Shown: positions 4,105-57,804, counted from the stretch's first letter. The stretch is 64,000 nt of DNA from Candidatus Nanopelagicales bacterium (GCA_018402235.1 JAGYJJ010000005.1:258219-322218); one strand, 5' to 3'. Notes: generated by a model not told the origin, from the sequence alone. Numbers and translations: made by a program.

Positions 4105-5763
4105 ATGAAGGAATCGTTCGACTACGTCATCGTTGGCGGCGGGTCTGCTGGATCCGCGCTCGCCAATCGGCTTTCCGCCGATGAATCCCGCTCGGTGCTG
4201 CTGCTTGAGGCCGGGCGGCGGGATTACTGGTGGGACGTCTACATCCACATGCCGGCGGCACTGACATTTCCCATCGGAAATCCGCGGTACGACTGGATGT
4301 ACTCGAGCGAGCCTGAGCCTGGGATGAATGGCCGACGCATCAGCGCCGGACGCGGCAAGATTCTCGGTGGGTCGAGCAGCATCAACGGGATGATTTTCCA
4401 GCGCGGGAATCCACTCGACTACGAGAAATGGGCCAGCGAGCCCGGCATGGACTCGTGGGACTTCGCACACTGTTTGCCGTACTTCAAGAAGATGGAGACG
4501 TGCACCGCCGGCGCCGATGAATGGCGTGGCAACTCAGGGCCGTTGTATATGGAACGCGGTCCGGTGAAAAATCCACTGTTCAATGCATTCTTCGAAGCAG
4601 TGCAGCAGGCAGGGTACCCGCTTACGGCCGATGTCAATGGCTACAAGCAGGAGGGCTTCGCGGCGTTCGACGGCAGCGTCAAGAATGGTCACCGCGTTAA
4701 TGCATCGAAGGCCTACCTCAACCCGGTTCGCCACCGCAGGAACCTGACAATCAGAACTCGATCACTCGTGACCAGGGTGCTCATGAACGGCACACGTGCC
4801 ACAGGCGTGGAGGTTCGCGACAGACGTGGACGCCTTCAGCAGATCAACGCAGGCGAAGTGATCTTGAGCGGCGGTGCGATCAACTCTCCGCAGTTGCTCC
4901 AGCTATCCGGCATCGGCGATGCAGACCACTTGCGCAGCGTTGGTGTGGAGCCCGTTCATCACCTACCGGGTGTGGGTGAGAATTTGCAGGATCACCTCGA
5001 GGTGTACGTCCAACATGCGTGCACCCAGCCGGTCTCGCTCAATCCGAATCTGCAGTTCTGGCGCCGCCCTTTTATCGGTGCGGCGTGGTTGTTCGGGCGC
5101 ACCGGACCGGGAGCTTCCAACCACTTCGAGGGCGGCGGATTCGCGCGAAGCAACGACGATGTCGATTATCCGAACCTCATGTTCCACTTCCTACCGATTG
5201 CAGTTCGTTACGACGGCACGGCGCCCGAAGGTGGGCACGGTTACCAGGTGCACATCGGCCCGATGTACTCCAATGCCCGCGGTAGCGTTCGGATAACCGC
5301 ATCCGATCCGACCAAGCCACCGGCCCTGCGCTTCAACTACCTGACAACCGAGCAGGACAAGCGTGAGTGGGTCGAAGCAATTCACGTTGCCCGCGACATC
5401 CTCAGCCAGTCTGCCTTCGCCCCCTATAGCGGAGGGGAGATCTCCCCAGGGTCAGCGGTGAGCACTGACGAAGAGATCCTCGAGTGGGTCCGCCAAGACG
5501 GGGAAACCGCGTATCACCCCTCGTGCACCTGCAAAATGGGCGTGGACGAGATGGCCGTTGTGGATCCCGAATCGCTTCGGGTGCACGGGCTCGACGGGCT
5601 GCGTGTGGTCGATGCCTCGGTCATGCCCGAAATCACCAATGCGAACATCTACGCGCCCACCATGATGATTGCGGAAAAGGCTGCAGATCGCATCATTGGG
5701 ATAAAACCGCTCCCACCGGAGCCCGTTCCGTTCTATCGTCACCGCGACTACGTAACCAAATGA
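4105..5763 (+). CDS. betA: choline dehydrogenase (GMC oxidoreductase)
   Basis: ORF track, 552 aa. FAD-binding N-terminus [19 protein letters not shown] and the GMC signature region [14 protein letters not shown]. Followed by betB. Confidence 0.9.
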
Positions 5764-5851: not shown

Positions 5852-7330
5852 ATGGGACTGCTCATAGATGGTCACTGGTGCCAGGCGGCCAGTGGAGCCA
5901 CCAGGACCATCACCTGCCCGGCAGATGGCCATGTGGTGGGAAGCGTCCCCGAAGCCGGCGAAGTCGACACCGTCCGCGCGATCGAAGCAGCCCGGCGCGC
6001 ATTCGACTCCACCTCCTGGCGCACAACGTCCAGCTTGGAACGCTCTCGACTTCTTCTGGCAGTGGCCGATCGACTCGAGTCCGAGACGCAGACAGTTGCT
6101 GCCGCCGAATCCGCAGACACCGGCAAGCGTCTCGTGGAATCTCGCTACGACGTAGCAGATGTGGTGTCGTGCTTTCGCTACTTCGCAGGGTTAATTCCCA
6201 AGGACTCCGGGCGGGTCATCGACACCGGCAATCCGACCACGATTTCCCGCGTCCAGCACGAGCCCGTGGGCGTGTGTGGACTCATCACTCCGTGGAATTA
6301 CCCGCTCCTGCAAGCGAGTTGGAAGGTTGCCCCAGCCTTGGCCGCGGGGTGCACGTTCGTGCTGAAGCCCAGCGAACTCACGCCACACACCTCGATTCTT
6401 CTCATGCAGTACTTGGTCGACGCTGGGATGCCGGCCGGGGTCGGCAATCTCGTTTTGGGCGCCGGCCCCACTGCTGGAGCACCCCTTTCCAGCCACCCGG
6501 ATATCGACATGGTCTCCTTCACCGGCGGCCTGGCCACCGGTCGCCGCATTATGGAAGCCGCCTCGGCCACGGTGAAGAAGGTCGCCCTTGAACTGGGCGG
6601 CAAGAACCCCAACATCGTCTTCGCCGATGCGGACTGGGATGCGGCCGTCGACAATGCGCTCACCGCCGTCTTTTTGCACTCAGGTCAGGTGTGTTCGGCC
6701 GGAGCGCGGTTGATCGTTGAGGAATCAATTCACGACGACTTTGTGGACGCCCTGGTCGAAGCTGCAGAGGGCATCAGGCTGGGCGGCCCGTACGACGAGA
6801 AGGCACAGACGGGAGCCCTGATCAGCGCAGCGCACCGCGACAAGATCGCCGACTACGTTGCGAAGGCACTGAAAGAAGGAGCCACTTTGCGCTGCGGAGG
6901 CCGAGAGCCCGATGGCCACGCCGATGGCTTCTTCTACCTCCCCACAATCTTGGACGGCTGCACGGCCTCCATGACGTGTGTTCAGGAGGAGTCTTTCGGA
7001 CCGGTGCTCACCGTCGAGACCTTCCGCACCGAGGCCGAGGCAACAGCGATCGCCAACGACACCTACTACGGCCTTGCCGGCGGTGTGTGGACCTCCGATG
7101 CTTCTAAGGCTCAGCGCGTAGCCAACGCCCTTAGGCACGGAACGATTTGGATAAACGACTTCCACCCCTACCTACCTCAGGCAGAATGGGGCGGTTTCAA
7201 ACAATCAGGAGTGGGACGAGAACTCGGCGCCCAGGGCTTCGGCGAGTACTTGGAAACAAAGCACGTCTATCAAAACCTTGACCCGAAACCCAGCGGGTGG
7301 TTCGACGTATCAGCGAAGGAAGCCCGATGA
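5852..7330 (+). CDS. betB: betaine-aldehyde dehydrogenase (NAD-dependent aldehyde dehydrogenase)
   Basis: ORF track 5828..7330. The ALDH catalytic region [15 protein letters not shown]...[16 protein letters not shown] is present. ATG 5852 (MGLLIDGHW...) is the preferred start but remains uncertain. Confidence 0.9.
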
Positions 7331-43742: not shown

Positions 43743-45371
43743 TCAGGACTCCGGGGTGTCGTCGGGCAAACGCGGGAAGAGTGCATCGCCCTTCGTCACG
43801 TGCGCACCCGCCGGCAGCTGACCCCAGCGACCAGCATCGCCGATTCGCTGCGCACCGATATCACCGAGCGCCTCGTGCGCACCGAGTTGCTGCCACAAAC
43901 TCGACATCGCTTTGGGCATCAGCGGGTTGTAGAGCACGGCAACCCCGCGAAGCGCCTCACACATCGTGTAGAGAACCGTGTCCAACCGCTGCGCGTTCGC
44001 TTCATCCTTGGCGAGCACCCACGGTTCCACCTCGGTCACGTATTGATTGACGAGTTCCACCACGCTGCGGACTTCGCCGATCGCGGTAGCGAAGTCAAGT
44101 TCATCCATCGCGCGATCTGCAGCACTGCATGCAGCAGCTAGGCGCTCCACCACAGCGTCCTCAGCCGGGGTCAAAGGACCCGCTTCCGGCAGCACACCGT
44201 CGCGATACTTGCCCACCATCGCGGTGGCACGCGACGCTAGGTTTCCCAGCCCGTTGGCGAGCTCGGATGTGTAGCGCGCGGACATGTCCTCCCAGGAGAA
44301 GGACCCGTCGTGGCCGAAGTTGATCGCGCGCATGAAGTAGTAGCGGAAGGCATCGGCTCCGAAGTGATCGATGATCTGCTCCGGTGCGATGCCGGTGAGC
44401 TTGGACTTACTCATCTTCTCCCCGCCCACCAGCAACCACCCGTGCGCGAAGACCTGCTTAGGGCAGCGGTTGATCAGCGGCCAGCAGCATCGCCGGCCAA
44501 TACACAGCATGGAAGCGCAGGATGTCCTTACCCACCAGGTGCACATCGGCCGGCCAGGTAGTGGCGTACTGCGCTGCATCCGCCGAGCCAGGCTCGGATC
44601 CGTAACCCACGGCGGTTGCATAGTTGAGCAGTGCGTCGAACCACACGTACACCACCTGCTTGGAATCCCAGGTAAGCGGAATTCCCCAGTCCACGCTCGA
44701 GCGCGACATTGAAATGTCGACCAGACCTTTGCGCAGGAAAGCCATGACCTCGTTGTACGCGCTTTGCGGACGGACGGCGTTCGGGTGTGCTTCGTAGTGC
44801 TCGATCAAACGATCGCCAAAAGCCGAGAGTTTGAAGAACCAGTTGTCCTCGCGCAGTTCTTCGGCCGGTTTTCCATGCACCGGGCACACCAGTTGACCTT
44901 CGAACTCACCTGTTCCCTCGACCAAGTCCCCGGGAACTTGAACTCCTCACACCCCACGCAATACGGACCTTCGTAGGGCGCGGAGTACACGAAACCGTTG
45001 TCGCGAATGTGCTCCCAGAACTTCTGCACGCGCTCGATGTGCCGGGTTTGCGTGGTGCGGATGAAATCGTCGTTCGCAGCATCCACGGTCTCCAAGACCG
45101 GGAGCCACGATTGCTCGACCAGTCGATCCACCCATTGCTGCGGGGTCACGCCCCCGGCATCGGCCGCCCGCTGCACCTTGGTCCCGTGCTCATCCACGCC
45201 GGTGAGGTACCAGACCTTCTCCCCGCGCTGACGGTGCCAACGGGTCAGAAAATCCCCGGCCGTGGTCGTGTACGCATGCCCGATGTGCGGCGCATCGTTG
45301 ACGTAATAAATGGGTGTGGAGACGTAATACGCCTTTTCACCTAAGAACGCATCACCCACGGGCCCGGACAT
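43743..45371 (-). pseudogene. metG: methionine--tRNA ligase, two compensating frameshifts as assembled
   Basis: ORF-track pieces 44805..45371 (HIGH motif APHIGHAYT), 44458..44925 and 43743..44621 (KMSKS). The outer pieces share a frame. The shifts lie at the G4 run 44928-44931 (one G missing, context CCGGGGAC) and at the CCC 44461-44463 (one extra C). Confidence 0.9.
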
Positions 45372-46285: not shown

Positions 46286-47867
46286 GTGCCCGCTGCGACC
46301 CTCGAGCCCACGGCTCCCGGGCCCGTTCCTCCCGACCGCAGCGTGGCCTCACTCCCTGAACGCCTTGCACCTCCCATGCCGTCGAGCAGCTGGCGTGGCT
46401 GGGTGGGACCACTGGCCGTTGGGGCCCTCGCAGCCGTCACCCGAATCACGAACCTCGGCAGGCCGGACGCCGTGGTCTTCGACGAGACCTATTACGCCAA
46501 GGACGCCTGGTCCTACCTGCGCTTCGGAGTGGAGATCGATGAGGTCGATAACCACAAGGACCTGATGCTGCAGGCCGGCGATAACTGGCGCACGGTCGAA
46601 GCGTTCAGTGGTGAACCGGGATTCATCGTCCATCCACCCGTGGGCAAGTGGACCATCGCGGTGGGTGAATACATCTTCGGCGTGACACCCTTCGGCTGGC
46701 GGATCGCCGTCGCGATCCTCGGCGTGCTGGCTGTGATCATCACCGCGCGCATCGTGCGCCGGCTCACCCGCTCAGACGTCCTCGGCACCATCGCCGGCCT
46801 GCTGCTAGCGCTCGAAGGCATCCACATCGTGATGAGCAGAACAGCGCTGCTCGATCTCACGCTCGGGTTCTGGGTACTCGTCGGGTTCGGTCTGCTACTG
46901 ATCGACAGGGATAGGACGCGGCAACGCGTGGCCCAGGACATTCGAATACGCGGCGTGGACCAAGTGGCGAACGGACTCGGCCCCTACCTGGGTCTTCGAC
47001 CCTGGCGCATCGCCGCGATCGCCGCACTTGGCTTGGCGATCGGCACCAAGTGGTCGGGGCTGTATTTCCTGGCCGCGTTCATGGTGATGTCGCTCATCTG
47101 GGATGCACTACTTCAGACGCGCCATTGGCGTGGACCACCCGTGGTCGTCGGCCTTCGCGCGCGATCTTCCGCTTGCAGCACTGTCCACCATCGTGATCGG
47201 TATTGGCGTCTACCTCCTTACCTGGACCGGCTGGTTCGCCACCTCTACCGGTTGGAGCCGCAACTGGGCTGCTGATCAAGGTCCATCGATCGTTCCCGAC
47301 CCCATCCGATCGCTGTGGCACTACCACTCCGAGATGTGGAACTTCCATACCAACCTCGACGCCGAGCACAACTACGCCTCGAACCCGCTCTCCTGGCCGT
47401 TCATGACGCGACCCACGTCCTTCTACTACGAAACACCCGAGGGTTGCGGCGCCGATAGTTGCTCCAGCACCGTTCTAGCCGTTGGCAATCCGATCATCTG
47501 GTGGGCTGCGCTGCTCGCCATCCCCTACCAACTGTGGCGCTGGATAGCCGCACGCGATTGGCGCTCCGGTGCCGTTCTCGTCGGCATCGCAGCCGGCTGG
47601 TTGCCATGGATGTTGTATCTGGATCGCACAATCTTCACGTTCTACACCGTGGTTTACGTGCCGTTCCTCGTCATGGCCGTCACCTTGACCCTCGGATCTA
47701 TCGCCCGCGGACTGCGCAACAAACCGCAATGGATACCCGCAGCGATCATCGGCGGTTACCTCTTAGCTGTAGTCCTCGCCGCCTGGTGGTTCTATCCGAT
47801 TTGGACAGCCGAGGTCATTCCTTACGATTCCTGGCGTATGCGGATGTGGTTGCCCACCTGGATTTGA
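46286..47867 (+). pseudogene. pmt: dolichyl-phosphate-mannose--protein O-mannosyltransferase, one frameshift as assembled
   Basis: ORF-track pieces 46208..47275 and 47103..47867. Motif VVFDETYYAKDAW. GTG 46286 is the likely start. The frames are joined by removing one base near 47088-47102 (GGG at 47100-47102). Confidence 0.8.
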
Positions 47868-47886: not shown

Positions 47887-50800
47887 CTACGCCGAGGTAG
47901 AGAACCAAATGGTTACCAGCCCTCGACCTGCCTGGCGTTCCTTGCGCTTCTTCACCATTCGCGTGGTGACCGGTCCTTCGTATCCCACGGCCCGCAGCGT
48001 GCGCTCGACCAGCGCAAGGCGCTTGCGCGTCAACTTCACGTCCTTCGACTGTGCCGACTTCGGGACCGTGAGTACCACCCGCGACGTCTGCGCATCGGCA
48101 CTCGCGGGGATCTGTCCCACGAGTGAGCGCAGAGCCACCACGCTGGCCTTGGTGAGGTCAGGTCGGTTCTTGAGGAAGCCCACGCGCGTCCCGATGGGAG
48201 ATGTGACCTGCAAGGCATCTGTCGGCTCTGCCACGACCTGAAGCCCGAGTGACGCCTGTGAGAGTTCGTTTCCTGGATTCGTTCCGATGATCTGGATCGT
48301 GTGAGTGCCCAGACTCAGAGACGGTGGGACGGTGATGTTCGTAGTGAATGCACCGCGTACATCTGCGGTGGTGGTGCCGACCAGGATCGGGCTGGACATC
48401 ATGTAGATATCCACCGTTGAGCGCTTCATGTAGCCGGCACCTGTCACGGCCATTCCTTCACCGCCCCAGGTCTGCAGAATTCCGCCATCCCGCAATGGCA
48501 GCGCTCGCGATGCAACACTGGGCTCGACTTCCAACTGCCATTGCCCCATGGACGCCACGAGCCCCGTGTTGGCCTGGTTTGCAGTGATGGTCAGTGCCAC
48601 GGACGTGGTGCCCACGATCAACGACGCATCACCGGGTTGCCGGGCCGCATCACCCGGGGACGGCTTCCTGACCGGCGAAGTCGGGGACCCAGAACTCGTT
48701 TGACCCGATGATGAATTCCCGGGGTTCGATCCACCGCCACCATTGGAGTTCGCTGAGAGGATGAACGTCGAGGAGGCTGTGCCTACGGTGAAGCCCGTTA
48801 GGGAAGCTGCAGTTGCCACTATCAGGCATTGTCCCGGGGTCGTGAAACTCAAAACACCGGTGATGGAAGTGATCGTGCAATCACTGGTTCCCTGACTTGT
48901 CACCGCGTAGGTGATAGCACCACCACCGGAACCATTGGCCGAATCCATCTCGACCGGTGATTGCGAAAGAGTCAATGAGGTGGTGGGTGACCATGAAACG
49001 GTCTGCGGCGCACTTGTGATCGTGAAAGTGACCGACGTGGATGTGAGAGCGTAGATCGAGTTCGCCGGCGCTGTAGCAACGATGACGCACGTTCCCGGCG
49101 CGGTAAAGGCGATGACGGCCGACGACGCATTAACCGTGCAACCAGAGGTTCCAGCCGAATTCACGGTGTAGCTCGGCGATCCGGAACCCGTACTTATCGT
49201 CGCAAGAGACGACGCCACTGATCCGGAATCCGCTGCGTCCAGTGTGGTGGTGGGACTCCAGGTGATCGAGCGGGTAGCCAATCCCACTGTGAGCGTGAGC
49301 GACACCGGTAATGACGCCGCATGCGTGGAGGTCGCACCGGCAACCACCTGAACCGTGCAACTGCCCTGTGCAGTGAAGGCCAGAGTCGATCCGCTGGTGA
49401 ACGAGCAAGATGCCGTACCCACCGACGCTACTGAGTACGCCAATGCGCCGCTAGCACTTGCCGTTGCAGGTGCCAAAATCACTGGCGAATCCACGACCGT
49501 AAATGCAGTCGTGGGTGCCCAACTCACCGTTTGGACCGCCGGGGTCACCGTCACGGAAACTCCATCACTGGTCGCTGCCGCGTTCAAAGCATCAGCTGCA
49601 ATAGTTACCGTCACGGTGCACGCGCCGATACGGGTAGCCGTCAACGCCGCGCCCGACACGGTGCATGGATCATCAGGTGAGACCGCGAAAGTCTTTGCGC
49701 CCGTACCCGAGCTGCCCGAACTCGACAACAAGATCTTGGAACCAGCCGTCATTGTTGTCGCATCCGGCACCACCGTGATGCTCTGCGCGACCAAGCCCAT
49801 GGTGACCGCTGCGCTGGCTGTCGAGTTGGTGCCATCGCCCATGAGGTTGGTTGCCTTCACGGTAATCGTGTACGTCTTATCGATGTCCAATATCAGGGTT
49901 ACTGAAGTCAATGTGGGCGTAGCCGTCACCGCGGCACTCGCATCCGATGGCGTTGCCGTGACGGTGTAGCCGGTGATGGGCTGCCCACCATCACTTGACG
50001 GTGCACTCCAACCCACAGACACCGTGGTCGCGGTCAACCGCGAAACCGTGACATCAGTTGGTGCTGAAGGCACTGTGGCAGGAACCTGCTGAGCGAGTGC
50101 ATCAGCAGATGGTGGGCTCGTACTCGTTGTCACGGTGACCTTGACGTCATACTGAGTCCCGTTGACCAGTCCCGCAATTGCCGTTGAGATCGTGGCCGAA
50201 TCAGTAATTGTCGCCTTTAGTAGGTATTCGTCACCAGAGGTTTTTGTGAAAACTTTGTAGTCAACGAATGTTCCGCACGTATTCAGGGCGAGGCAAGCAG
50301 GCGCCACCCAAGAAACGGCCAAAGTTTCATCTCCCGGCAAGACACTGAGGTTTTCAACCGCGCCGGTCGAAGTTGCAGGGGTCACGGGCGGCGAAGCAAG
50401 GGAAGCCACGCTTGTTCCCGCGGCGTTTGTCGCAGTGACCTGAATTGTGTAAGTCACTCCAAGAGTGAGCCCACTGACAGTGCAGGGACTGCTCGTACAA
50501 CTACCCGTAGCACCGTTGGATGCTGTCGCGGTGTAGCCCGTGATGATTACACCACCATTAGAACTGGGAACGCTGAATGCAACCGTGGCTGTGCCATTGC
50601 CCGCCGAAGCCGACGTGATCGTGGGAGCGGTCGGGCGATCAGCAGAAATCGTGAAGGTGACATCCCGCGTTCCTGCGGAGTAGTCGGGGCTAGCCGCTGC
50701 AGTCGCACGAACCACGCACGTACCTGCGGCGGAGTAGGTAAGCGTGCCCGAACTCTCATTAACTGAACACGAACCACTTGTTACGGAGTAGGTGATTGCG

Positions 50801-52168
50801 CCATCACCTGATGTCGACGCACCCGAACTCGGCGTCACTGGCGAACTACTGAACGAAAGTGACGTATTGGTCGGCGCCCACGTCACAGACTGGGCTGCCA
50901 CTTGCACTGTGATCGTAATCGCGCTACTGATGGCCGATGCGTACATTGAATCAGCCGCGACACTTGAGGTAACCGTGCAAGCTCCAACAGCTGAGCCAGT
51001 CAGGGTCGAGTCCGCAAGGGAACAGTTCGATGTGCCCGAGGCAACGCTGTACGTGACTTGACCCGTGCCCACGACACCCGTCGTAGAAAGGTCCGTGTTA
51101 GAAAACACTGGCGGTGTTGTCGTACCAGCAGAGACTGTGATCGTCTGCGGTGTCAGGGCGACAGTGAAAGTGACCGCGGTGGAATTAGCGGTATAGGACG
51201 TTGTCTCGCTTGCAGATGCAGTGATCTGGCAATCACCCGCACCCGTGAAGGTCAATGCCGCGGTGGAAGAGTTCACCGTGCACCCGGTGGCGCCGGCACT
51301 TGTCACCGCGTAGCTGATCGTTCCGTTGCCATCGGTCGTCGCGGTTGTGGACGGTGAGGCCGTAGTGGTGGTGATCGATGTGGTCGGAGCCCATGTCACC
51401 GTCTGAGGGAACACTGGGGCCGTAAAAGCTCGGATCGGACGAACCCTCTGCTCTAATTGCTTGCCGTGGTGGGGTTCGGAGGCACTAAAACTCACACGCT
51501 GGGCATACGAGGTTCCCGAGTACAGTTCACTCGAACTCCAGTAATCGGTGCCATCGGCGCTACCAAACCCGTAGTCGCTAAGAGCGAAATCGGCATTTTG
51601 TGAACCAGCGCATTTTGATGTTGACGGAGTTCCAACCCATGTTCTCGAGTAATTACACATCGCAGTCAGTTCATCCTTGGATGGCAAAAACCAGTCATCA
51701 AAACCACCTAGTACCAGATTCGCTACCGTTTTACCAGCGCCGCTTGAACAGAACGCAGCAATAGCTGCCGTATTGGCCGCTCCGGTACCGATATTGATGT
51801 TGCGTGCGGCGGATCCAGGGACATTCTTATTCACAATGTTGCACCATTGGTATGAGGGATCTGCGCTGCCACCACTCCACGTTTTTGGCCATCTCATATG
51901 TCTTTCCACCGGAGACCAAGAACACGACTCCACCCCCAGGCCCGATGTCACCTAGAGCACAGGGGCCACCTTCTGCGCAGGACGGCACTGGGTCCGCAGC
52001 TGTTGCAGGTGACGAGGCGACGACGCTTCCAGCCAAAGCGCCGAGGACCAGGGACGCGCTGGCCAAGGTCAAGGTGATCGGTCGGAGCGCACGACCCGCG
52101 ACTTGCGCACGAGCTCGATTACTTGCTCGCCAAGGCCCGGTGAAAATTCCTCTGCGCAGTCGACTCAT
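47887..52168 (-). pseudogene. giant secreted surface protein (about 1,430 aa) with DUF1566/Lcl-like N-terminal domain, Cys-pair repeat modules and FN3 modules; one frameshift as assembled
   Basis: ORF-track pieces 51827..52168 (signal peptide, then GDIGPGGGVVFLVSGGKTYEMA) and 47887..51951. They are joined by removing one A from the A5 run at 51882-51886 (...YEMAKTWSGGSADPSYQWCN...). See findings for the domain layout. Confidence 0.8.
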
Positions 52169-52174
52169 GACAAC

Positions 52175-52221
52175 ACGCTATGCAGGGAATTTCAATTATG
52201 GCTCAGGGTTCACAAGTGTGA
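52175..52221 (-). promoter_or_regulatory. candidate activator-dependent leaderless promoter of the giant surface protein gene: TCACACTTGTGA, 29 nt, TAGCGT, 6 nt, ATG
   Basis: Read directly on the minus strand. The same architecture occurs at 54118-54164 and 56662-56708. Confidence 0.55.
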
Positions 52222-52312
52222 CGGTTCCCGCGTAATCCACGCTTGCCAAGGTGCGAACAGTGCCGTCACCGTGGGTTAGGCAGGTGACTTCCACGGAAAG
52301 GCCGGATGTGAG

Positions 52313-53440
52313 TCACTTTTTGGTATTTCCATGACCATTCGGGTCAAGTGCCAGACAGGCAGACAGAACGACACCCGCCGTCTTTCCGTTCTGCCAGCTC
52401 CATGAGCCATCGAGTGAATGGGCCCAGGTCGTCATCAGCGTCGACCCGAAACCCGTCATGTCCGGTGGGCCCGCTAATCCTCGGCCATCATCCTTCACTG
52501 TCAGTTCGAGTACGTCGTGTTCCACTCTTACGTCGATCTCGCACAGCCGAGCAGCACCATGGCCGGCAGAATTCAACAGCGCTTGCTCGATAATCCGATA
52601 GGCACCAAGCAGCACGTTCGAGGATGGGCGCGTTTCCTTGTTCTCAATCACGGAATCGACTGTGATTGTCGCCTTCATGCCCGGTTCGTATTGCAGCGCT
52701 AGTTCGTCTAGAGCCGATTCCAAATCCACTTCACTGAGACTCGGGCTAAGGGCACGCGCAATTCGACGAATGTCTACTGCACGGATCTCCTCGAGCTGCG
52801 CGACCGTGTGGTCGAGTGTCCGTTGAGTCTCCGCTGGCCTCTCAACGTCGACCATCTGGAGTTCAAGACAAGCGGCGATCAGACGAGCTTGCACTCGGTC
52901 GTGCAAGGCGCCGGAAATTTGCCGCCGAGTGAACTCGTCTCCCTGCAACAGGATCGCCTGCTGTGCTTGCGCCAGGTTGAGCGCACTCTGCGTCTGAACT
53001 ACTTGGCTGGCCAACTTCGCACCTGCTCTACCGGTAATGATCAGGATGAGGAACATGGCTGCAGCCAGACGCAGGACAGCAACCAACACCGTTGGAACGT
53101 TGTCTAGGGCTGCGGAGTCCACATCGCCAATGATGATTCGAAGCGCGATCACGGTTGCGGACGAAAGAAGTACGAAGACGATGTAGGACACCACCCGAAC
53201 ACCGAAACGCCGCTGCCACAGAACACCGATCTGCAGGACTAGGCCGCTAGGGATCGCGATCAGTACTGATACGGATGTCCCTTCAGTCAGCCATGCAATC
53301 TCAAAGTTACCGCTCGCGATCCGCTCACTGTTGCGAATCCCCGATAGCCATAGCGCCATAGTTACCGTGACGAGTACGGGGCGAAGTGGCCAGGGACCCA
53401 AGATTCGCCAGGATGACCGCTTGAGCGGAATTACCTTCAC
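52313..53440 (-). CDS. sensor histidine kinase (HisKA_3/NarX-type) with polytopic N-terminal membrane domain
   Basis: ORF track, 375 aa. H-box ISGALHDRVQARL and a C-terminal HATPase region (DDGRGL...GFGSTL). The GTG start overlaps the regulator stop. Confidence 0.85.
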   Translation of the reverse strand: MKVIPLKRSSWRILGPWPLRPVLVTVTMALWLSGIRNSERIASGNFEIAWLTEGTSVSVLIAIPSGLVLQIGVLWQRRFGVRVVSYIVFVLLSSATVIALRIIIGDVDSAALDNVPTVLVAVLRLAAAMFLILIITGRAGAKLASQVVQTQSALNLAQAQQAILLQGDEFTRRQISGALHDRVQARLIAACLELQMVDVERPAETQRTLDHTVAQLEEIRAVDIRRIARALSPSLSEVDLESALDELALQYEPGMKATITVDSVIENKETRPSSNVLLGAYRIIEQALLNSAGHGAARLCEIDVRVEHDVLELTVKDDGRGLAGPPDMTGFGSTLMTTWAHSLDGSWSWQNGKTAGVVLSACLALDPNGHGNTKK

Positions 53441-54111
53441 GAGTCACGCCACTCATCGGCATCAACCAGTCGAAGGTAAGACATTACGGCTTTGGTGCGA
53501 ACGTCAGATCCAGCGCCACCGTCAGGAACAAGTGTTTGATAAGCCCTGGACAGGTCCTTGCGCACCGACTCCGGACTGAGATCTATATGGTCACCAATCT
53601 CCGGCGCGCTCATGCCGAGGGAAGCTAAGCCCATGATCACTCGCTGGCGCGCAGTGAGGTTCCTGAGCAACACCGATCCACGGTCATCTTCGGTGTCATC
53701 ACTTCGCATTCGATCGTGGCTCATGCCAAGGGCTGTTGACCGCAAGAGTTCGGTCAGTTCCTCCGGCTTCAACGTGCCCGTCTTCGCCAGATACGACCAG
53801 CCCATCTGCTGCGCTTCGGGAACCTGCTTCGAGACGTTCTTCATCGGATGTTGGGAGTGGATGACGATCCCGATGTTGGGGTTGCGGTTACGCAACGCCA
53901 TTCCCAGATCCATGCCGGTGAGGGTGTCGCGACCCAATGCCAGGTCGAGCAGCGCCACATCCGCTCGTTCCACGCACTCTGAACCGAGCACCTCAAGAGG
54001 ATCAGCGGACGCGAGTATCAAATCCAGCATCGGCTGGGATCGAAGGACCGTGGACATAACACCCAAGAGCGCCGGATCGTTCTCGACATAGATCAGTCGA
54101 GAGGGGCGCAT
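53437..54111 (-). CDS. NarL/FixJ-family response regulator (REC + LuxR-type HTH)
   Basis: ORF track, 224 aa. Receiver domain aspartate (VALLDLALG) and HTH LTARQRVIMGLASLGMSAPEIGDHIDLSPESVRKDLSRAY. Confidence 0.9.
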   Translation of the reverse strand: MRPSRLIYVENDPALLGVMSTVLRSQPMLDLILASADPLEVLGSECVERADVALLDLALGRDTLTGMDLGMALRNRNPNIGIVIHSQHPMKNVSKQVPEAQQMGWSYLAKTGTLKPEELTELLRSTALGMSHDRMRSDDTEDDRGSVLLRNLTARQRVIMGLASLGMSAPEIGDHIDLSPESVRKDLSRAYQTLVPDGGAGSDVRTKAVMSYLRLVDADEWRDS

Positions 54112-54117
54112 GGGCGC

Positions 54118-54164
54118 AGCATCTCATCCCGCGTGCATAAGGGAAAACGGTTTCACACTTGTGA
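54118..54164 (-). promoter_or_regulatory. candidate autoregulated leaderless promoter of the two-component operon: TCACAAGTGTGA, 29 nt, GATGCT, 6 nt, ATG
   Basis: Read directly. The 12-mer is the exact reverse complement of the copy at 52210-52221. Confidence 0.5.
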
Positions 54165-54173
54165 CAGCATCTG

Positions 54174-54602
54174 TTACCGGGTCTTGCTGCGCCAGGTCCA
54201 CGCAAGTCTGATGACGATCGCAAGCAGCACCACCTCAACCAGGCTGCCGAGCACGAAGTAGGCCCACTCGCCTACGGCCGCACCGGCGATCGTGATCGCG
54301 TAAACGCTGGCCACCACGATCGAGACGATTCGGTTGATGCGTCTGGGCATGACCAACGTGAGGTAGACCATCACACTGGGGATGATCACGTAGGCGGTGA
54401 TGCCGAGGAGGAAGGGCTGGCCTACCTCGAAGACGAAGATCCTTCCTTCGTCGAGGCCTTGACGAAAGTCCTGGCGATACAGCGAGAACAGATCCACGTA
54501 GAGGAATACCAACATGGTCGCCACCCACAAAGCGGACATCCGTATCCGGACGTCGATGGGCGAACGCCCCTGCTCGAGTGCCACCGGGTTCGACATAGCC
54601 AT
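54174..54602 (-). CDS. small integral membrane protein (about 4 TM helices), function unknown
   Basis: ORF track, 142 aa, hydrophobic segments throughout. Divergent from a TetR gene. Confidence 0.6.
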   Translation of the reverse strand: MAMSNPVALEQGRSPIDVRIRMSALWVATMLVFLYVDLFSLYRQDFRQGLDEGRIFVFEVGQPFLLGITAYVIIPSVMVYLTLVMPRRINRIVSIVVASVYAITIAGAAVGEWAYFVLGSLVEVVLLAIVIRLAWTWRSKTR

Positions 54603-54612
54603 CCTCTCGTTG

Positions 54613-54660
54613 CCTTACGCTCGTAAGGCTTGAACCGAAGACTAGCCTTACAGGCGTAAG
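54613..54660. promoter_or_regulatory. two palindromes CCTTACG-ct-CGTAAGG and CCTTAC-aggc-GTAAG in the divergent TetR/membrane-protein intergenic region (candidate TetR operators)
   Basis: Read directly. The first begins 11 nt from the membrane-protein ATG (54602). The second abuts the TetR GTG (54660). Confidence 0.55.
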
Positions 54661-55328
54661 TGCGCAAGTATGGGCCCGTGCCCAAGCGACCACCGCTCAC
54701 TGCGCAGCGGATCATCGAGGCCGCTGCCGCAGTGGCTGATGACGGAGGGCTCGCGGCTGTGAGCATGCGCAACGTCGCCAAGGAACTCAAGGTCGAAGCG
54801 ATGTCGCTCTACCACCACGTGGCGGACAAGGAGAGCCTGCTCGATGGCCTAGCCGATTGGATCGTCGTACAGATCGAACTTCCCGAGGTCACCGATCCGT
54901 GGCGAGCAGCGATGTCCGCTCGCGCACACTCCGCCCACGACGTGTTGTCTGCGCATCCGTGGGCGATCACGTTGATCGAATCGCGTCCGGCACCGGGCTT
55001 ACCGCTGCTACGTCATCATGACCGCATCGTTGGGTGCTTGCTCGAATCGGGATTCTCCGCTGCGCTGGCAACCCACGCCTTCTCCGCGATCGACGCCTAC
55101 GTGTACGGATTCACCTTGAGCGAGGCGAACCTGCCCTTCACACCCGGCGATGGAGCTGAGGAAGCCTTCGCCTCGGATGTCGCTCCGGCGGCCGATGAGT
55201 TTCCGTACCTAGCGCGCTCCCTGGGCGAACTCATGGAAACGGGCACCTACTCCTACGCAGCGGAATTCGACTACGGCCTGGACCTAATCCTTGATGGATT
55301 TGTAACCAGATTGGCTGCGCGTTCCTAA
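54660..55328 (+). CDS. TetR-family transcriptional regulator
   Basis: ORF track, 222 aa. HTH VSMRNVAKELKVEAMSLYHHVADKESL. The start could be GTG 54660 or GTG 54678. Confidence 0.85.
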   Translation: MRKYGPVPKRPPLTAQRIIEAAAAVADDGGLAAVSMRNVAKELKVEAMSLYHHVADKESLLDGLADWIVVQIELPEVTDPWRAAMSARAHSAHDVLSAHPWAITLIESRPAPGLPLLRHHDRIVGCLLESGFSAALATHAFSAIDAYVYGFTLSEANLPFTPGDGAEEAFASDVAPAADEFPYLARSLGELMETGTYSYAAEFDYGLDLILDGFVTRLAARS

Positions 55329-55356
55329 CCCCCGGCATCGAACTACTGCCTACCGG

Positions 55357-55893
55357 CTAACTGCCTACTGCGGCGGACGTTCCGAGCGCGCCCATCACGA
55401 TCATCATGATCGCCCACACCGAGATTCCAATGATGCCGCCGATCTTTCGCTGGCGAGCACCCGAGGTGATGATGACAAAGATCGCAACGAAGCCGAAATA
55501 CAGACCGCTGATCAAGAACGATGCGGAGACCGCCATGAGTCCCCAATCAAGGACCACAGCGAGCAACGCGTAAGTACCCCATGCAAGGTTCGCCAGACCA
55601 ACTTCGATCTGGAAGTTGTTGCGTTGCCCGTAATCCCAACCACCATGCACCGCATCGGATCGGTTGTAGATCGCGTGGCGGAAGAAGGACAGCACTCCGG
55701 TGGCGGTGACGGCGAGCAGTGCCGCAACGGAAAGCGATGCGGGCTCTTGTTGCAATGTTGAGATGCCGATGAAGTAGCCGACGCCACCGACGATGTAGGT
55801 CAGCCACATCAAGGTGGCCGCGGGACGGGGACTGACGGTGGCCTGCTCGCTCATGGGTGGAGCATGTCGGAAAGGAACGAGTAAATCGGTCAC
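55357..55893 (-). CDS. integral membrane protein (about 5 TM helices), function unknown
   Basis: ORF track, 178 aa. The start could be GTG 55893 or ATG 55854. Confidence 0.55.
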   Translation of the reverse strand: MTDLLVPFRHAPPMSEQATVSPRPAATLMWLTYIVGGVGYFIGISTLQQEPASLSVAALLAVTATGVLSFFRHAIYNRSDAVHGGWDYGQRNNFQIEVGLANLAWGTYALLAVVLDWGLMAVSASFLISGLYFGFVAIFVIITSGARQRKIGGIIGISVWAIMMIVMGALGTSAAVGS

Positions 55894-55944
55894 CGAGGTG
55901 GGGATTCCCCCTTTTTTTGGAAGCGTAGCCGCCTTGTTTTCACA

Positions 55945-56655
55945 TCAAGCCACGGTTCGTTCACACGTGTGTCCACCAAAACCAGAATTCGGCCAGTACG
56001 CCCACCCAGGTTGATAACCGTCCGGGCAGTCGTCGTCGGGCGAGTCTCTGCCTATTGACTGCACCCACGGGGCACTGGCCTCAGCCGAATTGGACGAGGG
56101 GATTGGCAGTTGCGGGTAGTAGACGTAGCTGCGGTGGTTGCATACGAATCCACCGGTTCCCCCATTAGGCCAGTGCTCCCAACTCGGTTCCCAGTCCGCG
56201 GGGCACGAATCGCTCTCGGTCGCTCGCCCGGTTGACTGGTGCCAGATGCTTAAATCGCGCTCCTGGGACTGGTCGGAGTACACGTTTATCAAGACGGTGC
56301 TGTTGAGCCGTTCCCCAAAGACCTCTTCGCCAAATACTGTGACGGTGTATTGGCCTGCAGGAAGAGGAACAGCATTGCCCGACCGGTCTTTAACCGAGAA
56401 CCCCGGTGAGACGATCACCTCGTCAACCCCGATTGGTGGTCGATATGTGTATTGGTACGGATCCGTTGAACTACAACTCGACTGTGTCCCTGCGCAAACG
56501 TATGCAAGAGTGTTTGCCGAAGCTGGCTCGGTTGAAGCGATAAGTACCGTGCCTGAGCCAGAGGCGGTTAGACACCCGGTGGCAACAAGACAAACCCCCA
56601 GTAGGACAGAGCTGATCATGGCGACCCGGATGCGAGATTGCGACAACGCCACCAC
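55945..56655 (-). CDS. secreted lipoprotein with duplicated Cys/Trp-rich C-terminal module
   Basis: ORF track, 236 aa. Lipobox LVATGC. Duplicated motif CPADWEPSWEHWPNGGTGGFVCNHR / CPDGYQPGWAYWPNSGFGGHTCER. Confidence 0.65.
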   Translation of the reverse strand: MVALSQSRIRVAMISSVLLGVCLVATGCLTASGSGTVLIASTEPASANTLAYVCAGTQSSCSSTDPYQYTYRPPIGVDEVIVSPGFSVKDRSGNAVPLPAGQYTVTVFGEEVFGERLNSTVLINVYSDQSQERDLSIWHQSTGRATESDSCPADWEPSWEHWPNGGTGGFVCNHRSYVYYPQLPIPSSNSAEASAPWVQSIGRDSPDDDCPDGYQPGWAYWPNSGFGGHTCERTVA

Positions 56656-56661
56656 AGGAGA

Positions 56662-56708
56662 ACGCTAAGAGCCTGCCAACCCTCCATGGAGAGGTGTCAC
56701 GAGTGTGA
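56662..56708 (-). promoter_or_regulatory. candidate leaderless promoter of the Cys/Trp lipoprotein gene: TCACACTCGTGA, 29 nt, TAGCGT, 6 nt, GTG
   Basis: Read directly. It matches the giant-gene motif at 11 of 12 positions with identical spacing. It lies between the gene and tRNA-Ala. Confidence 0.5.
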
Positions 56709-56714
56709 ACCAAC

Positions 56715-56790
56715 TGGTGGAGCTGAGGGGATTCGAACCCCTGGCCTTCTCATTGCGAACGAGACGCGCTACCAACTGCGCCACAGCCCC
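56715..56790 (-). tRNA. tRNA-Ala (anticodon CGC), CCA encoded
   Basis: Hand-folded: GGGGCTG tg GCGC agttggta GCGC g TCTCG TTCGCAA TGAGA aggcc AGGGG ttcgaat CCCCT CAGCTCC ACCA. The G3:U70 alanine identity pair is present. Confidence 0.9.
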
Positions 56791-56820
56791 AAGCGAGGGG
56801 AAAGGCTAGCAGCCGAGCAA

Positions 56821-57804
56821 CTACTCGCCCGCGGCGCGGCGGGTTTCTTCATACCCGTCGTTCACGCCATCGTGCATCCGGACCCGGGGCAATTCCGCGG
56901 TGTCGTCGGCCGCGGTGTGCGCAGGCGAACCCAAGGCGTAGGAGTCGTCAGCAAGATCATCAACCGTGATGCGCGGACGACGCATAGTGCGGGCCGCTTC
57001 GACCATGGCTTCTCCGGACCAGTCGCGGTCGCGCTCGATCGGGCGGCGGACGCGGGTTGCCCGCGGGGCGTTGACGTACGTGGGCAAGGTGGTGGGGACA
57101 GCAGTCCAGCCAACTTCGGTTTCCTGCTCCTCGCCCTCCCACGGATCCCACGAAACGAAGTCGTCCATCGCGGCGGCGATCTGCGCATCGCGGCTGCGCT
57201 TGCTCGGTGGGCGAAGACCACGGGTGCGCGGGTAAGCAACTTCGGCAACCTGATCGCTGTACGCGACGTCGCGGTAGTCATCAAGATCGTCGTAATCGGC
57301 CTGGACGTCGTCGTACGTTTCGACAAACCGCTCGCGCCGACGCGAACTACCAGCGCTGGACGAACGCTGCGAGGACGTAACCGAGGCAGCAATCACGTAG
57401 GACAAAACAACGACGGCAAGAAGAATCGGTGCCCACCGGGGCACCACGTTGACGATCGCCAGGACGAGGGTTAGGGCCAAAGCCGAACTCAGGACACCCA
57501 TGATGATCGCCCGGCGCTTCGCGGCCGTTTCCTGCGCCCGCGTCCGCGGATCGAAGGCCAGATTCGACGCCCGAACGTCACGCGAACCTGAGCTATGCCC
57601 GCCACTGTCGGTCCTGTTGTTCTTGCCGAGGGACCGCATCGCGGAGGAGAAGCGCGCGGTGGAACGGACCTCGCTGATCTGGTCGTGGCGACGCAACCAG
57701 ATGGGAATCAAGACGGCAGCCCACAGGGCGATGATCACCACATAGATCAAGCCCGTCACAATTGCACACGCTAGGCGCTGAAAACCCCGTGTTGTGGTAG
57801 GCAA
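56821..57804 (-). CDS. conserved actinobacterial membrane protein with acidic/basic low-complexity cytoplasmic region
   Basis: ORF track, 327 aa. Two to three TM helices and a D/E- and R-rich tail. It occupies a syntenic position next to rimJ-like and galU. Confidence 0.6.
   Translation of the reverse strand: MPTTTRGFQRLACAIVTGLIYVVIIALWAAVLIPIWLRRHDQISEVRSTARFSSAMRSLGKNNRTDSGGHSSGSRDVRASNLAFDPRTRAQETAAKRRAIIMGVLSSALALTLVLAIVNVVPRWAPILLAVVVLSYVIAASVTSSQRSSSAGSSRRRERFVETYDDVQADYDDLDDYRDVAYSDQVAEVAYPRTRGLRPPSKRSRDAQIAAAMDDFVSWDPWEGEEQETEVGWTAVPTTLPTYVNAPRATRVRRPIERDRDWSGEAMVEAARTMRRPRITVDDLADDSYALGSPAHTAADDTAELPRVRMHDGVNDGYEETRRAAGE

Follow-up and report, generated by a model that had tools for sequence, protein, structure and literature searches.

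The closest described counterparts of the system reported here are two-component systems with response regulators of the NarL/FixJ type. E. coli NarL binds '7-2-7' inverted repeats with a 2-bp centre. DevR/DosR of M. tuberculosis recognizes palindromic sites located upstream of the promoter and is an activator of its own operon. Its Dos box is a 20-bp GGGACT-type palindrome, its regulon comprises about 50 dormancy genes, and the kinases paired with it use GAF sensor domains. LiaSR/VraSR, which serve envelope stress in Firmicutes, combine a sensor kinase consisting almost only of transmembrane segments with strong positive autoregulation and a very small regulon, mostly local, reached through a single palindrome upstream of the promoter. 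In Streptomyces, the atypical NarL-family orphan regulator BldM recognizes the Group I site 5'-TCACcCgnncGgGTGA-3', a 16-bp palindrome to which it is inferred to bind as a homodimer (PMC4125116). Here we describe a 12-bp inverted repeat, TCACA-NN-TGTGA, found upstream of a response regulator/histidine kinase operon, a large secreted protein gene and a lipoprotein gene in Candidatus Nanopelagicales bacterium (GCA_018402235.1, JAGYJJ010000005.1:258219-322218). The whole stretch of 64,000 nt that was analyzed is called the window, and positions are counted from its first letter. We consider it probable that the repeat is the operator of the locally encoded NarL/FixJ-type regulator which, with its paired membrane kinase, would activate its own operon and the neighboring genes.

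The locus shares with NarL/FixJ systems a regulator made of a receiver and a LuxR/GerE-type helix-turn-helix, an adjacent NarX/UhpB-like kinase and a palindrome with a 2-bp centre, and a profile of the regulator family matches full-length NarL (1a04) at E 3.9e-8. It differs from NarL in its 5-2-5 core (12 bp, against 16 bp for 7-2-7), in a half-site unrelated to NarL's TACYYMT, in its targets, which are secreted proteins and not respiratory genes, and in its very remote sequence. DevR/DosR, also an actinobacterial NarL-type regulator, scores best among the solved structures when these are compared with the family profile (3c3w, E 4.5e-9); its Dos box, its large dormancy regulon and the GAF domains of its kinases set it apart. 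LiaSR/VraSR resemble the locus in their NarL-type regulator, type of kinase and local-regulon logic (profile against VraR, E ~4e-8). However, no LiaF-like accessory gene is present here, the motif is a different one, the promoters are of a leaderless actinobacterial type, and in place of phage-shock-like or cell-wall synthesis proteins the regulator would control large variable secreted proteins. BldM is another actinobacterial NarL-family regulator, and the outer half-sites, TCAC...GTGA, are identical. These blocks are 4 bp apart in the three copies and in the family consensus, whereas they are 8 bp apart in BldM, and the repeat does not have the Group I arrangement; unlike BldM, an orphan, the regulator of this locus is translationally coupled to its kinase. 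As a design, a two-component system that activates itself and adjacent targets is standard and conventional. We found no published description of the regulator clade or of the motif in the searchable literature, and the comparisons below define a putative operator and promoter grammar for a clade that appears previously undescribed.

An earlier reading of the window from its bare letters (the sequence-only reading) had placed the repeat 41 nt upstream of three start codons and assigned it to a candidate leaderless regulon of the NarL-type two-component system. When the minus strand was read over 52000-57000, the coordinates and spacings of all three 12-mers proved right to the base, and the -10-like hexamer reported 6 nt from each start codon was present as TAGCGT, GATGCT and TAGCGT. 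The large secreted protein gene is preceded by cgTCACACTTGTGA, 29 nt, TAGCGT, gttgtc and ATG (52168). The regulator/kinase operon has tgTCACAAGTGTGA, 29 nt, GATGCT, gcgccc and ATG (54111), which places its repeat at -53 to -42 relative to that ATG, and the lipoprotein gene has gtTCACACTCGTGA, 29 nt, TAGCGT, tctcct and GTG (56655). Each of these start codons is the 5'-most ATG, GTG or TTG of its own open reading frame (ORF). The three upstream regions share no similarity beyond the 12-mer and the -10 hexamer, and therefore do not represent a duplicated promoter. The features are collected in Table 1.

Table 1. Features of the repeat-bearing locus, in window coordinates; for the repeats, the strand is that on which the sequence shown is read
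Feature	Position	Strand	Description
Repeat copy 1	52210-52221	minus	TCACACTTGTGA; exact TCACA-NN-TGTGA; belongs to the promoter of the gene for the large secreted protein, which follows the kinase gene directly
Repeat copy 2	54153-54164	minus	TCACAAGTGTGA; exact TCACA-NN-TGTGA; promoter of the regulator/kinase operon
Repeat copy 3	56697-56708	minus	TCACACTCGTGA; one mismatch; 41 nt before GTG 56655
Possible weak fourth site	55961-55972	minus	ACACACGTGTGA; one mismatch; within the lipoprotein gene, at its 3' end
-10 hexamer TAGCGT	52175-52180	minus	29 nt past the repeat; ATG 52168 follows after 6 nt; not TG-extended
TG-extended -10, TGaGATGCT	54118-54126	minus	regulator operon; ends 6 nt before ATG 54111
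-10 hexamer TAGCGT	56662-56667	minus	lipoprotein promoter
Response regulator, 224 aa	53437-54111	minus	receiver and LuxR/GerE-type helix-turn-helix
Histidine kinase, 375 aa	52313-53440	minus	GTG start overlaps the regulator stop codon (GTGA)
Large secreted protein, ~1430 aa if repaired	47887-52168	minus	signal peptide, Lcl_C/DUF1566-like domain, fn3 and immunoglobulin (Ig)-like repeats
Lipoprotein, 236 aa	55945-56655	minus	Arg-bearing n-region, lipobox-like LVATGC, two Trp/Cys-rich modules
tRNA-Ala(CGC)	56715-56790	minus	immediately upstream of copy 3; syntenic landmark in relatives
TetR	54660-55328	plus	
PMT glycosyltransferase	46376-47864	plus	matches the L085 ortholog in two frames
MetG	43746-45341	minus	matches the L085 ortholog in three frames

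Two exact repeats, 2 kb apart, occur in the 64 kb, where about 0.03 are expected from base composition. When one mismatch is allowed, the window holds five sites against a shuffled mean of 2.03, a count reached by 3 of 100 shuffles and marginal on its own. On both strands of the window, no other site with up to two mismatches was followed by the hexamer and the start codon of a long ORF, and sites with promoter geometry are confined to a 4.5-kb cluster around the regulator. A start codon does follow at 41 nt in two sites with two mismatches; the ORFs, however, span only 53-57 codons and the NANNNT hexamer is missing. The site at 55961-55972, upstream of the DUF6790 gene, may be weak or decayed. 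Its status is doubtful because the nearest hexamer, TACGCT, stands 33 nt downstream instead of 29, and the geometry is thus off by 4 nt.

To see how far this arrangement extends, regulator homologs were gathered from Ca. Nanopelagicales and allied actinobacterial metagenome-assembled genomes (MAGs). We fetched 80 genome loci (cited by their L numbers) and several more contigs, giving 686 kb of sequence around more than 80 homologs. This sequence contains 51 exact and 40 one-mismatch copies of TCACA-NN-TGTGA, against 0.2 and 9.6 in block shuffles. The 91 sites divide into 45 in regulator promoters, 13 before other ORFs and 33 elsewhere. In the 45 regulator promoters (at most one mismatch) the repeat stands 40-43 nt before the start codon, and the 13 other ORFs, which mostly encode large signal-peptide proteins, keep a geometry of 39-43 nt. 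Comparison of the 75 nt upstream of the regulator genes revealed a TCACA-NN-TGTGA-like palindrome at a constant offset in most of them, down to ~40% protein identity, and all sites with promoter geometry, in each of the sources examined, are found no more than a few kb away from a member of this regulator family. Both the conservation of motif and spacing in relatives, for which the sequence-only reading had called, and its pairing of the two-component system with the motif are thus borne out at the level of sequence, since regulator promoters and neighboring signal-peptide genes share site and geometry. Close orthologs, with regulators 88-91% identical, retain both repeat and TG-extended -10 (TGaGATGCT in L002 and L082, TGcAAAGGT in L001, L010 and L081) on either side of an unrelated 29-nt spacer, a pattern that reads as a classical phylogenetic footprint.

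We aligned 54 non-redundant promoters on the start codon. The repeat falls at -53 to -42, A occurs at -11 in 41/54 and T at -7 in 35/54, T and G are enriched at -15 and -14, and a -35 signal is absent from these promoters, with no information at -36 to -30. The leaderless-type layout proposed for the window recurs in these promoters. When the promoters are aligned on the repeat instead, NANNNT appears at offset 29, and less often at 28, 30 and 31, in both regulator and non-regulator classes. The conserved distance is that between repeat and -10, 29±1 nt, rather than that between repeat and start codon; the fixed 41-nt offset is accurate for the three window sites, but is not the quantity that relatives preserve. 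The promoter of the lipoprotein ortholog in L082 has 31 nt between repeat and -10 in place of 29. An exact repeat stands directly after the kinase gene in L018, L019, L022, L025, L028, L031, L032 and L036, and most of these are followed, after 28-31 nt, by a -10-like hexamer (TAGCGT in L025, L028 and L031, AACGCT in L019, TAAATT in L018). In these cases the hexamer is in turn followed by a leader of 40-80 nt, usually with a GGAGG-type Shine-Dalgarno sequence, and then by the gene of a secreted protein of ~350 aa. In the window, an ANNNT-type -10 ends 6 nt before the start codon at all three promoters, leaving no room for a Shine-Dalgarno sequence; because of this distance the three transcripts should be leaderless, with transcription predicted to begin at the first base of the start codon.

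These alignments also bear on whether the repeat is a protein-binding site at all. It could be half of a -35-like element, an RNA hairpin or terminator, or the product of chance spacing. A consensus scan does find GTCACA-16-CATAAT in the promoter of the large secreted protein gene, and copies 2 and 3 begin only 9 nt past the upstream gene and 6 nt past tRNA-Ala, respectively. The -35/-10 pairing is, however, confined to that one of the three promoters, and no signal is seen 16-18 nt past the repeat in the 54 aligned promoters. As a hairpin or terminator serving the tRNA or the DUF6326 gene that lies upstream, the repeat offers an RNA stem of only 4 bp that folds no better than shuffles (z -0.35 to -0.87), with no T-tract and no terminator-like site, and an Rfam scan matched the tRNA but no RNA family at the repeats. 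Chance spacing is at odds with the 51 exact sites in the survey, and we regard a non-protein origin of the repeat as extremely unlikely.

Regulator and target promoters differ in their -10 elements. A TG lies two bases upstream of the NANNNT hexamer in 35/42 regulator promoters, compared with 4/35 non-regulator sites, where the hexamers are mostly TAGCGT (8, the commonest), TACCGT (3) and the like. On this basis, the regulator operon would idle without activation, while the cargo promoters would depend on bound regulator. The sequence of events we propose is that a dimer of phosphorylated regulator docks on the repeat, always on one face of the helix, and recruits or stabilizes RNA polymerase. 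It would thereby raise transcription of its own operon in a positive autoregulatory loop, whose TG-extended -10 would also permit basal expression, and would switch on the promoters of the large secreted protein and lipoprotein genes, which would depend on an activator and which have TAGCGT and no TG. Binding by the regulator, a need for phosphorylation and activation as the outcome are all predictions from the arrangement of genes and sites.

The assignment of the regulator to the NarL type holds; it is a very divergent member. Its receiver exceeds the Pfam cut-off for Response_reg (31.5 bits vs 30.2). The helix-turn-helix stays below those for GerE (19.4 vs 23.5) and Sigma70_r4_2 (23.4 vs 25.7), and many homologs carry a precomputed PF00196. 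The family profile matches DevR, NarL and VraR over their full length (E 4.5e-9 to 5.7e-8) and the isolated DNA-binding domains of DosR (1zlk, E 2.1e-5) and NarL (1je8, E 7.2e-5); the single sequence, searched against all solved structures, retrieves only DevR (E 0.003). A search of 1.84 billion cluster representatives gave only 503 matches at E <= 0.001 and 24 at E <= 1e-30, and the clade is therefore small and isolated. Residues D56, S86 and K110 are invariant in 20 homologs. The N-terminus, MRPxRxIYVENDP, is conserved in homologs from the first codon, which fixes the start codon at 54111.

The kinase alongside is of the NarX/DesK (HisKA_3) type and was found syntenic with the regulator in 73 tblastn matches. 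Its partial NCBIfam matches, to UhpB (E 1.1e-13), MctS and NarX, all fall far under the equivalog cut-offs. The N-terminal ~145 aa contain three to four hydrophobic segments joined by short loops, and are followed by an H-box, read as 'ALHDRVQARL', and an ATPase domain with a weak HATPase_c match. The short loops and the lack of a large external domain suggest that the kinase senses within the membrane.

Several lines of comparison link the regulator to the repeat. Read on the minus strand, the genes are ordered tRNA-Ala, copy 3, lipoprotein, DUF6790, TetR (plus strand), DUF6326, copy 2, regulator, kinase, copy 1 and large protein, the DUF6790 and DUF6326 genes encoding membrane proteins. The flanks of locus L085 match the window (NTP transferase, acetyltransferase, GlpR, tRNA-Ala, lipoprotein, PMT, RsmI and MetG). 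Between its lipoprotein and PMT genes, L085 (5688-8048) is without a segment of ~8 kb (window ~47887-55893) that holds the DUF6790, TetR, DUF6326, regulator, kinase and large protein genes, and the repeat before its lipoprotein ortholog is reduced to a TGTGAC half-site past the tRNA. The segment is a variable island near tRNA-Ala. In L041, L051 and L055 the half-site variant AGTGA replaces TGTGA in both the regulator promoter and the post-kinase site. The joint loss in L085, the shared half-sites and the footprint favor the regulator as the binder, although these are correlations; it is also the only DNA-binding protein consistently linked to the motif.

Other observations weigh against this assignment, and some of them favor a different role for the regulator. 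In the three window promoters, which have a -10 and no recognizable -35, the repeat is centred at -47.5. The usual class II activator position is about -42; as the centre is half a helical turn away from it, contact with the polymerase would be non-textbook. Actinobacterial promoters often lack a -35, which makes its absence weak evidence of activator dependence. At regulator residues 10-12, which follow strand β1, the alignment as we read it shows E-N-D without exception, in place of the D-D-H of NarL; this may mean altered metal binding or phosphorylation chemistry. The scan of the source genome for the repeat covered the 64-kb window. The repeat might be the regulator's site while binding represses or only fine-tunes transcription, for example if unphosphorylated regulator restrains polymerase at otherwise constitutive promoters. 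The off-centre position and the expendable -35 suit such a scheme, as does the TG-extended -10 of the regulator promoters, which should work without an activator. Repressor sites, however, usually overlap the -35, the -10 or +1, and this one lies wholly upstream of the polymerase core contacts. The target promoters are without both TG and -35, and the constancy of the repeat-to-(-10) distance (29±1 nt) among promoters that have otherwise diverged widely is what marks an activator making a face-specific contact. We consider repression or fine-tuning unlikely.

The remaining difficulties concern specificity. Recognition helix and motif co-vary weakly, since hardly any variation is present in the helix, S/T-x-D/E-x-V-R-K/Q-D/E-L-S. 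The paralogs L038 and L039, in which another palindrome, GGAACG-N4-CGTTCC, occupies the position of the repeat, show no more than small changes at the start of the recognition helix, a suggestive but not conclusive case of co-variation. By hand count, the central dinucleotides of regulator and target sites match in 5 of 13 cassette pairs, a weak figure from non-independent pairs that we did not use. Paralogous regulators in one genome often have nearly identical 12-mers (L007 and L023 in one MAG), which puts the insulation between cassettes in doubt and makes a shared factor conceivable. Such a factor, unlinked and common to these genomes, would bind the repeat and count the regulator and the secreted-protein genes among its regulon. 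The half-sites TGTGA and TCACA also resemble CRP/Rex-type sites. The CRP/FNR/Rex-type operator is TGTGA-N6-TCACA; here, in contrast, the half-sites stand in the opposite order and are separated by 2 bp instead of 6. An unlinked factor would also have to account for sites with promoter geometry lying within a few kb of the regulator, and in the window only in the 4.5-kb cluster, for the loss in L085 of the two-component island together with the intact repeat, and for the fact that no other regulator is conserved in the cassettes. We judge it very unlikely, and retain the local regulator as the probable binder and activator.

The proposed targets are secreted or surface proteins. The sequence-only reading was correct about the repeat and start codon of the giant surface protein gene, but the ORF is frameshifted in the assembly: ORF 51827-52168, with the signal peptide and the start of the Lcl_C/DUF1566-like domain, overlaps ORF 47887-51951 in another frame. 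The break lies near 51880-51895 (minus strand GAGATGGCCAAAAACGTGG), as an indel beside a GGCC/A5 run, and an intact homolog in L027 reads GGKTYEMAPKAWG (YEMAPKAWG) across it. The PMT and MetG genes are also frame-broken relative to L085 (Table 1), so that the assembly seems to hold several indel errors and the frameshift is probably one of them rather than the mark of a pseudogene.

The lipoprotein matched no family in Pfam or NCBIfam, and only 9 homologs were found in 5.8 billion proteins. Its start at GTG 56655, as opposed to ATG 56619, is supported by the orthologs in L082 and L083, which keep the tRNA-Ala, the repeat (TTCACACTTGTGAC), a -10-like hexamer (TAGCGT in L082, GAGAGT in L083) and the GTG, and conserve the residues upstream of ATG 56619 in frame (VLPLSRSRLR and VLQLSRSRLR, VVALSQSRIR in the window). 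The region 55948-56250 encodes two Trp/Cys-rich modules of ~40 aa, C-P-x-x-W/Y-x-P-S/G-W-x-x-W-P-N-x-G-x-G-G-x-x-C, without family matches; in L027 (8100-8250), the post-kinase protein has this module ahead of its Lcl_C-like domain. NCBIfam likewise gave no match for the large secreted protein or for the DUF6790 and DUF6326 proteins.

Across the survey, the non-regulator ORFs behind the motif encode fn3, RCC1 propeller, cadherin-like, BNR, collagen-like and other β-propeller domains. As these ORFs are adjacent signal-peptide proteins of diverse domain content, the regulon appears to be local and its cargo variable. A peptidase in L045 on the far side of a palindromic regulator site also fits the geometry, probably fortuitously. 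Several targets with unrelated N-termini (L023 3739-5922 and 7846-9681, L037 3809-6130, L057 2198-5446) have an fn3 domain and, following it, a conserved C-terminal region of ~85 aa, with the pattern ...ITG.R.G..V.V.G...G......W.....G.......R......G.F.W.R.T.K...VYF... and no Pfam match, which may serve in anchoring or sorting. The large secreted protein of the window ends differently (...GLVTIWFSTSA), and a similar C-terminal region is found in L054, with 42.5% identity in the final 87 residues.

Regulation in Nanopelagicales-like freshwater actinobacteria is almost unstudied, since few strains are cultivated. The pattern TCACA-NN-TGTGA, 29±1 nt, -10 provides a testable grammar for a clade that ordinary family models barely recognize, and one tied to large variable secreted proteins that genome descriptions usually leave unannotated and without a regulator. 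It also serves as a rule by which start codons and promoters of these genomes can be called. A broader proposal, which we offer tentatively and regard as rather doubtful, is that the locus is one cassette of a lineage-restricted family, in which a membrane-sensing system is dedicated to an adjacent variable secreted or surface protein through a shared 12-bp operator and two promoter grades. At least two to three regulator copies were fetched from several individual Nanopelagicales-like genomes. If the proposal is true, and with cross-talk between paralogs, such cassettes would act in combination as a switch that remodels the surface of bacteria ranking among the most abundant in freshwater, possibly when phages or grazers attack the envelope.

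Several further observations concern the locus and its relatives. Several MAGs hold two to three regulator paralogs on different contigs, and L002 has two regulator genes of the clade ~1.5 kb apart (4395-4460 and 5947-6672), with their own repeats TCACATGTGTGA and TCACACCTGTGA. A second, weaker palindrome occurs ~19-22 bp from the main repeat in some promoters, for example CTCACGCCTGCGAG upstream of TTCACATATGTGAG. It is seen ~21 bp upstream of the main repeat in L048, L050, L052 and L053, and further cases are L042, L045, L060 (8709-8728), L001 (3583-3614) and L036 (4393-4423); none was found at the three window promoters. This suggests tandem dimer binding in some members of the regulator family. 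We also considered the repeats as attachment sites of the island by tRNA-Ala and rejected this, as the L085 indel spans ~47.9-55.9 kb, with copy 3 outside it and copies 1 and 2 internal. TetR was rejected as a binder of the repeat, as it has its own palindromes, CTTAC-N4-GTAAG, twice and is absent from most cassettes. These lie in the divergent TetR/DUF6326 intergenic region (54603-54659) as CTTAC-GCCT-GTAAG and CCTTAC-GAGC-GTAAGG, and are probably TetR operators unrelated to the 12-mer. The GC content is slightly lower, 0.56-0.58, over 49.5-54 kb.

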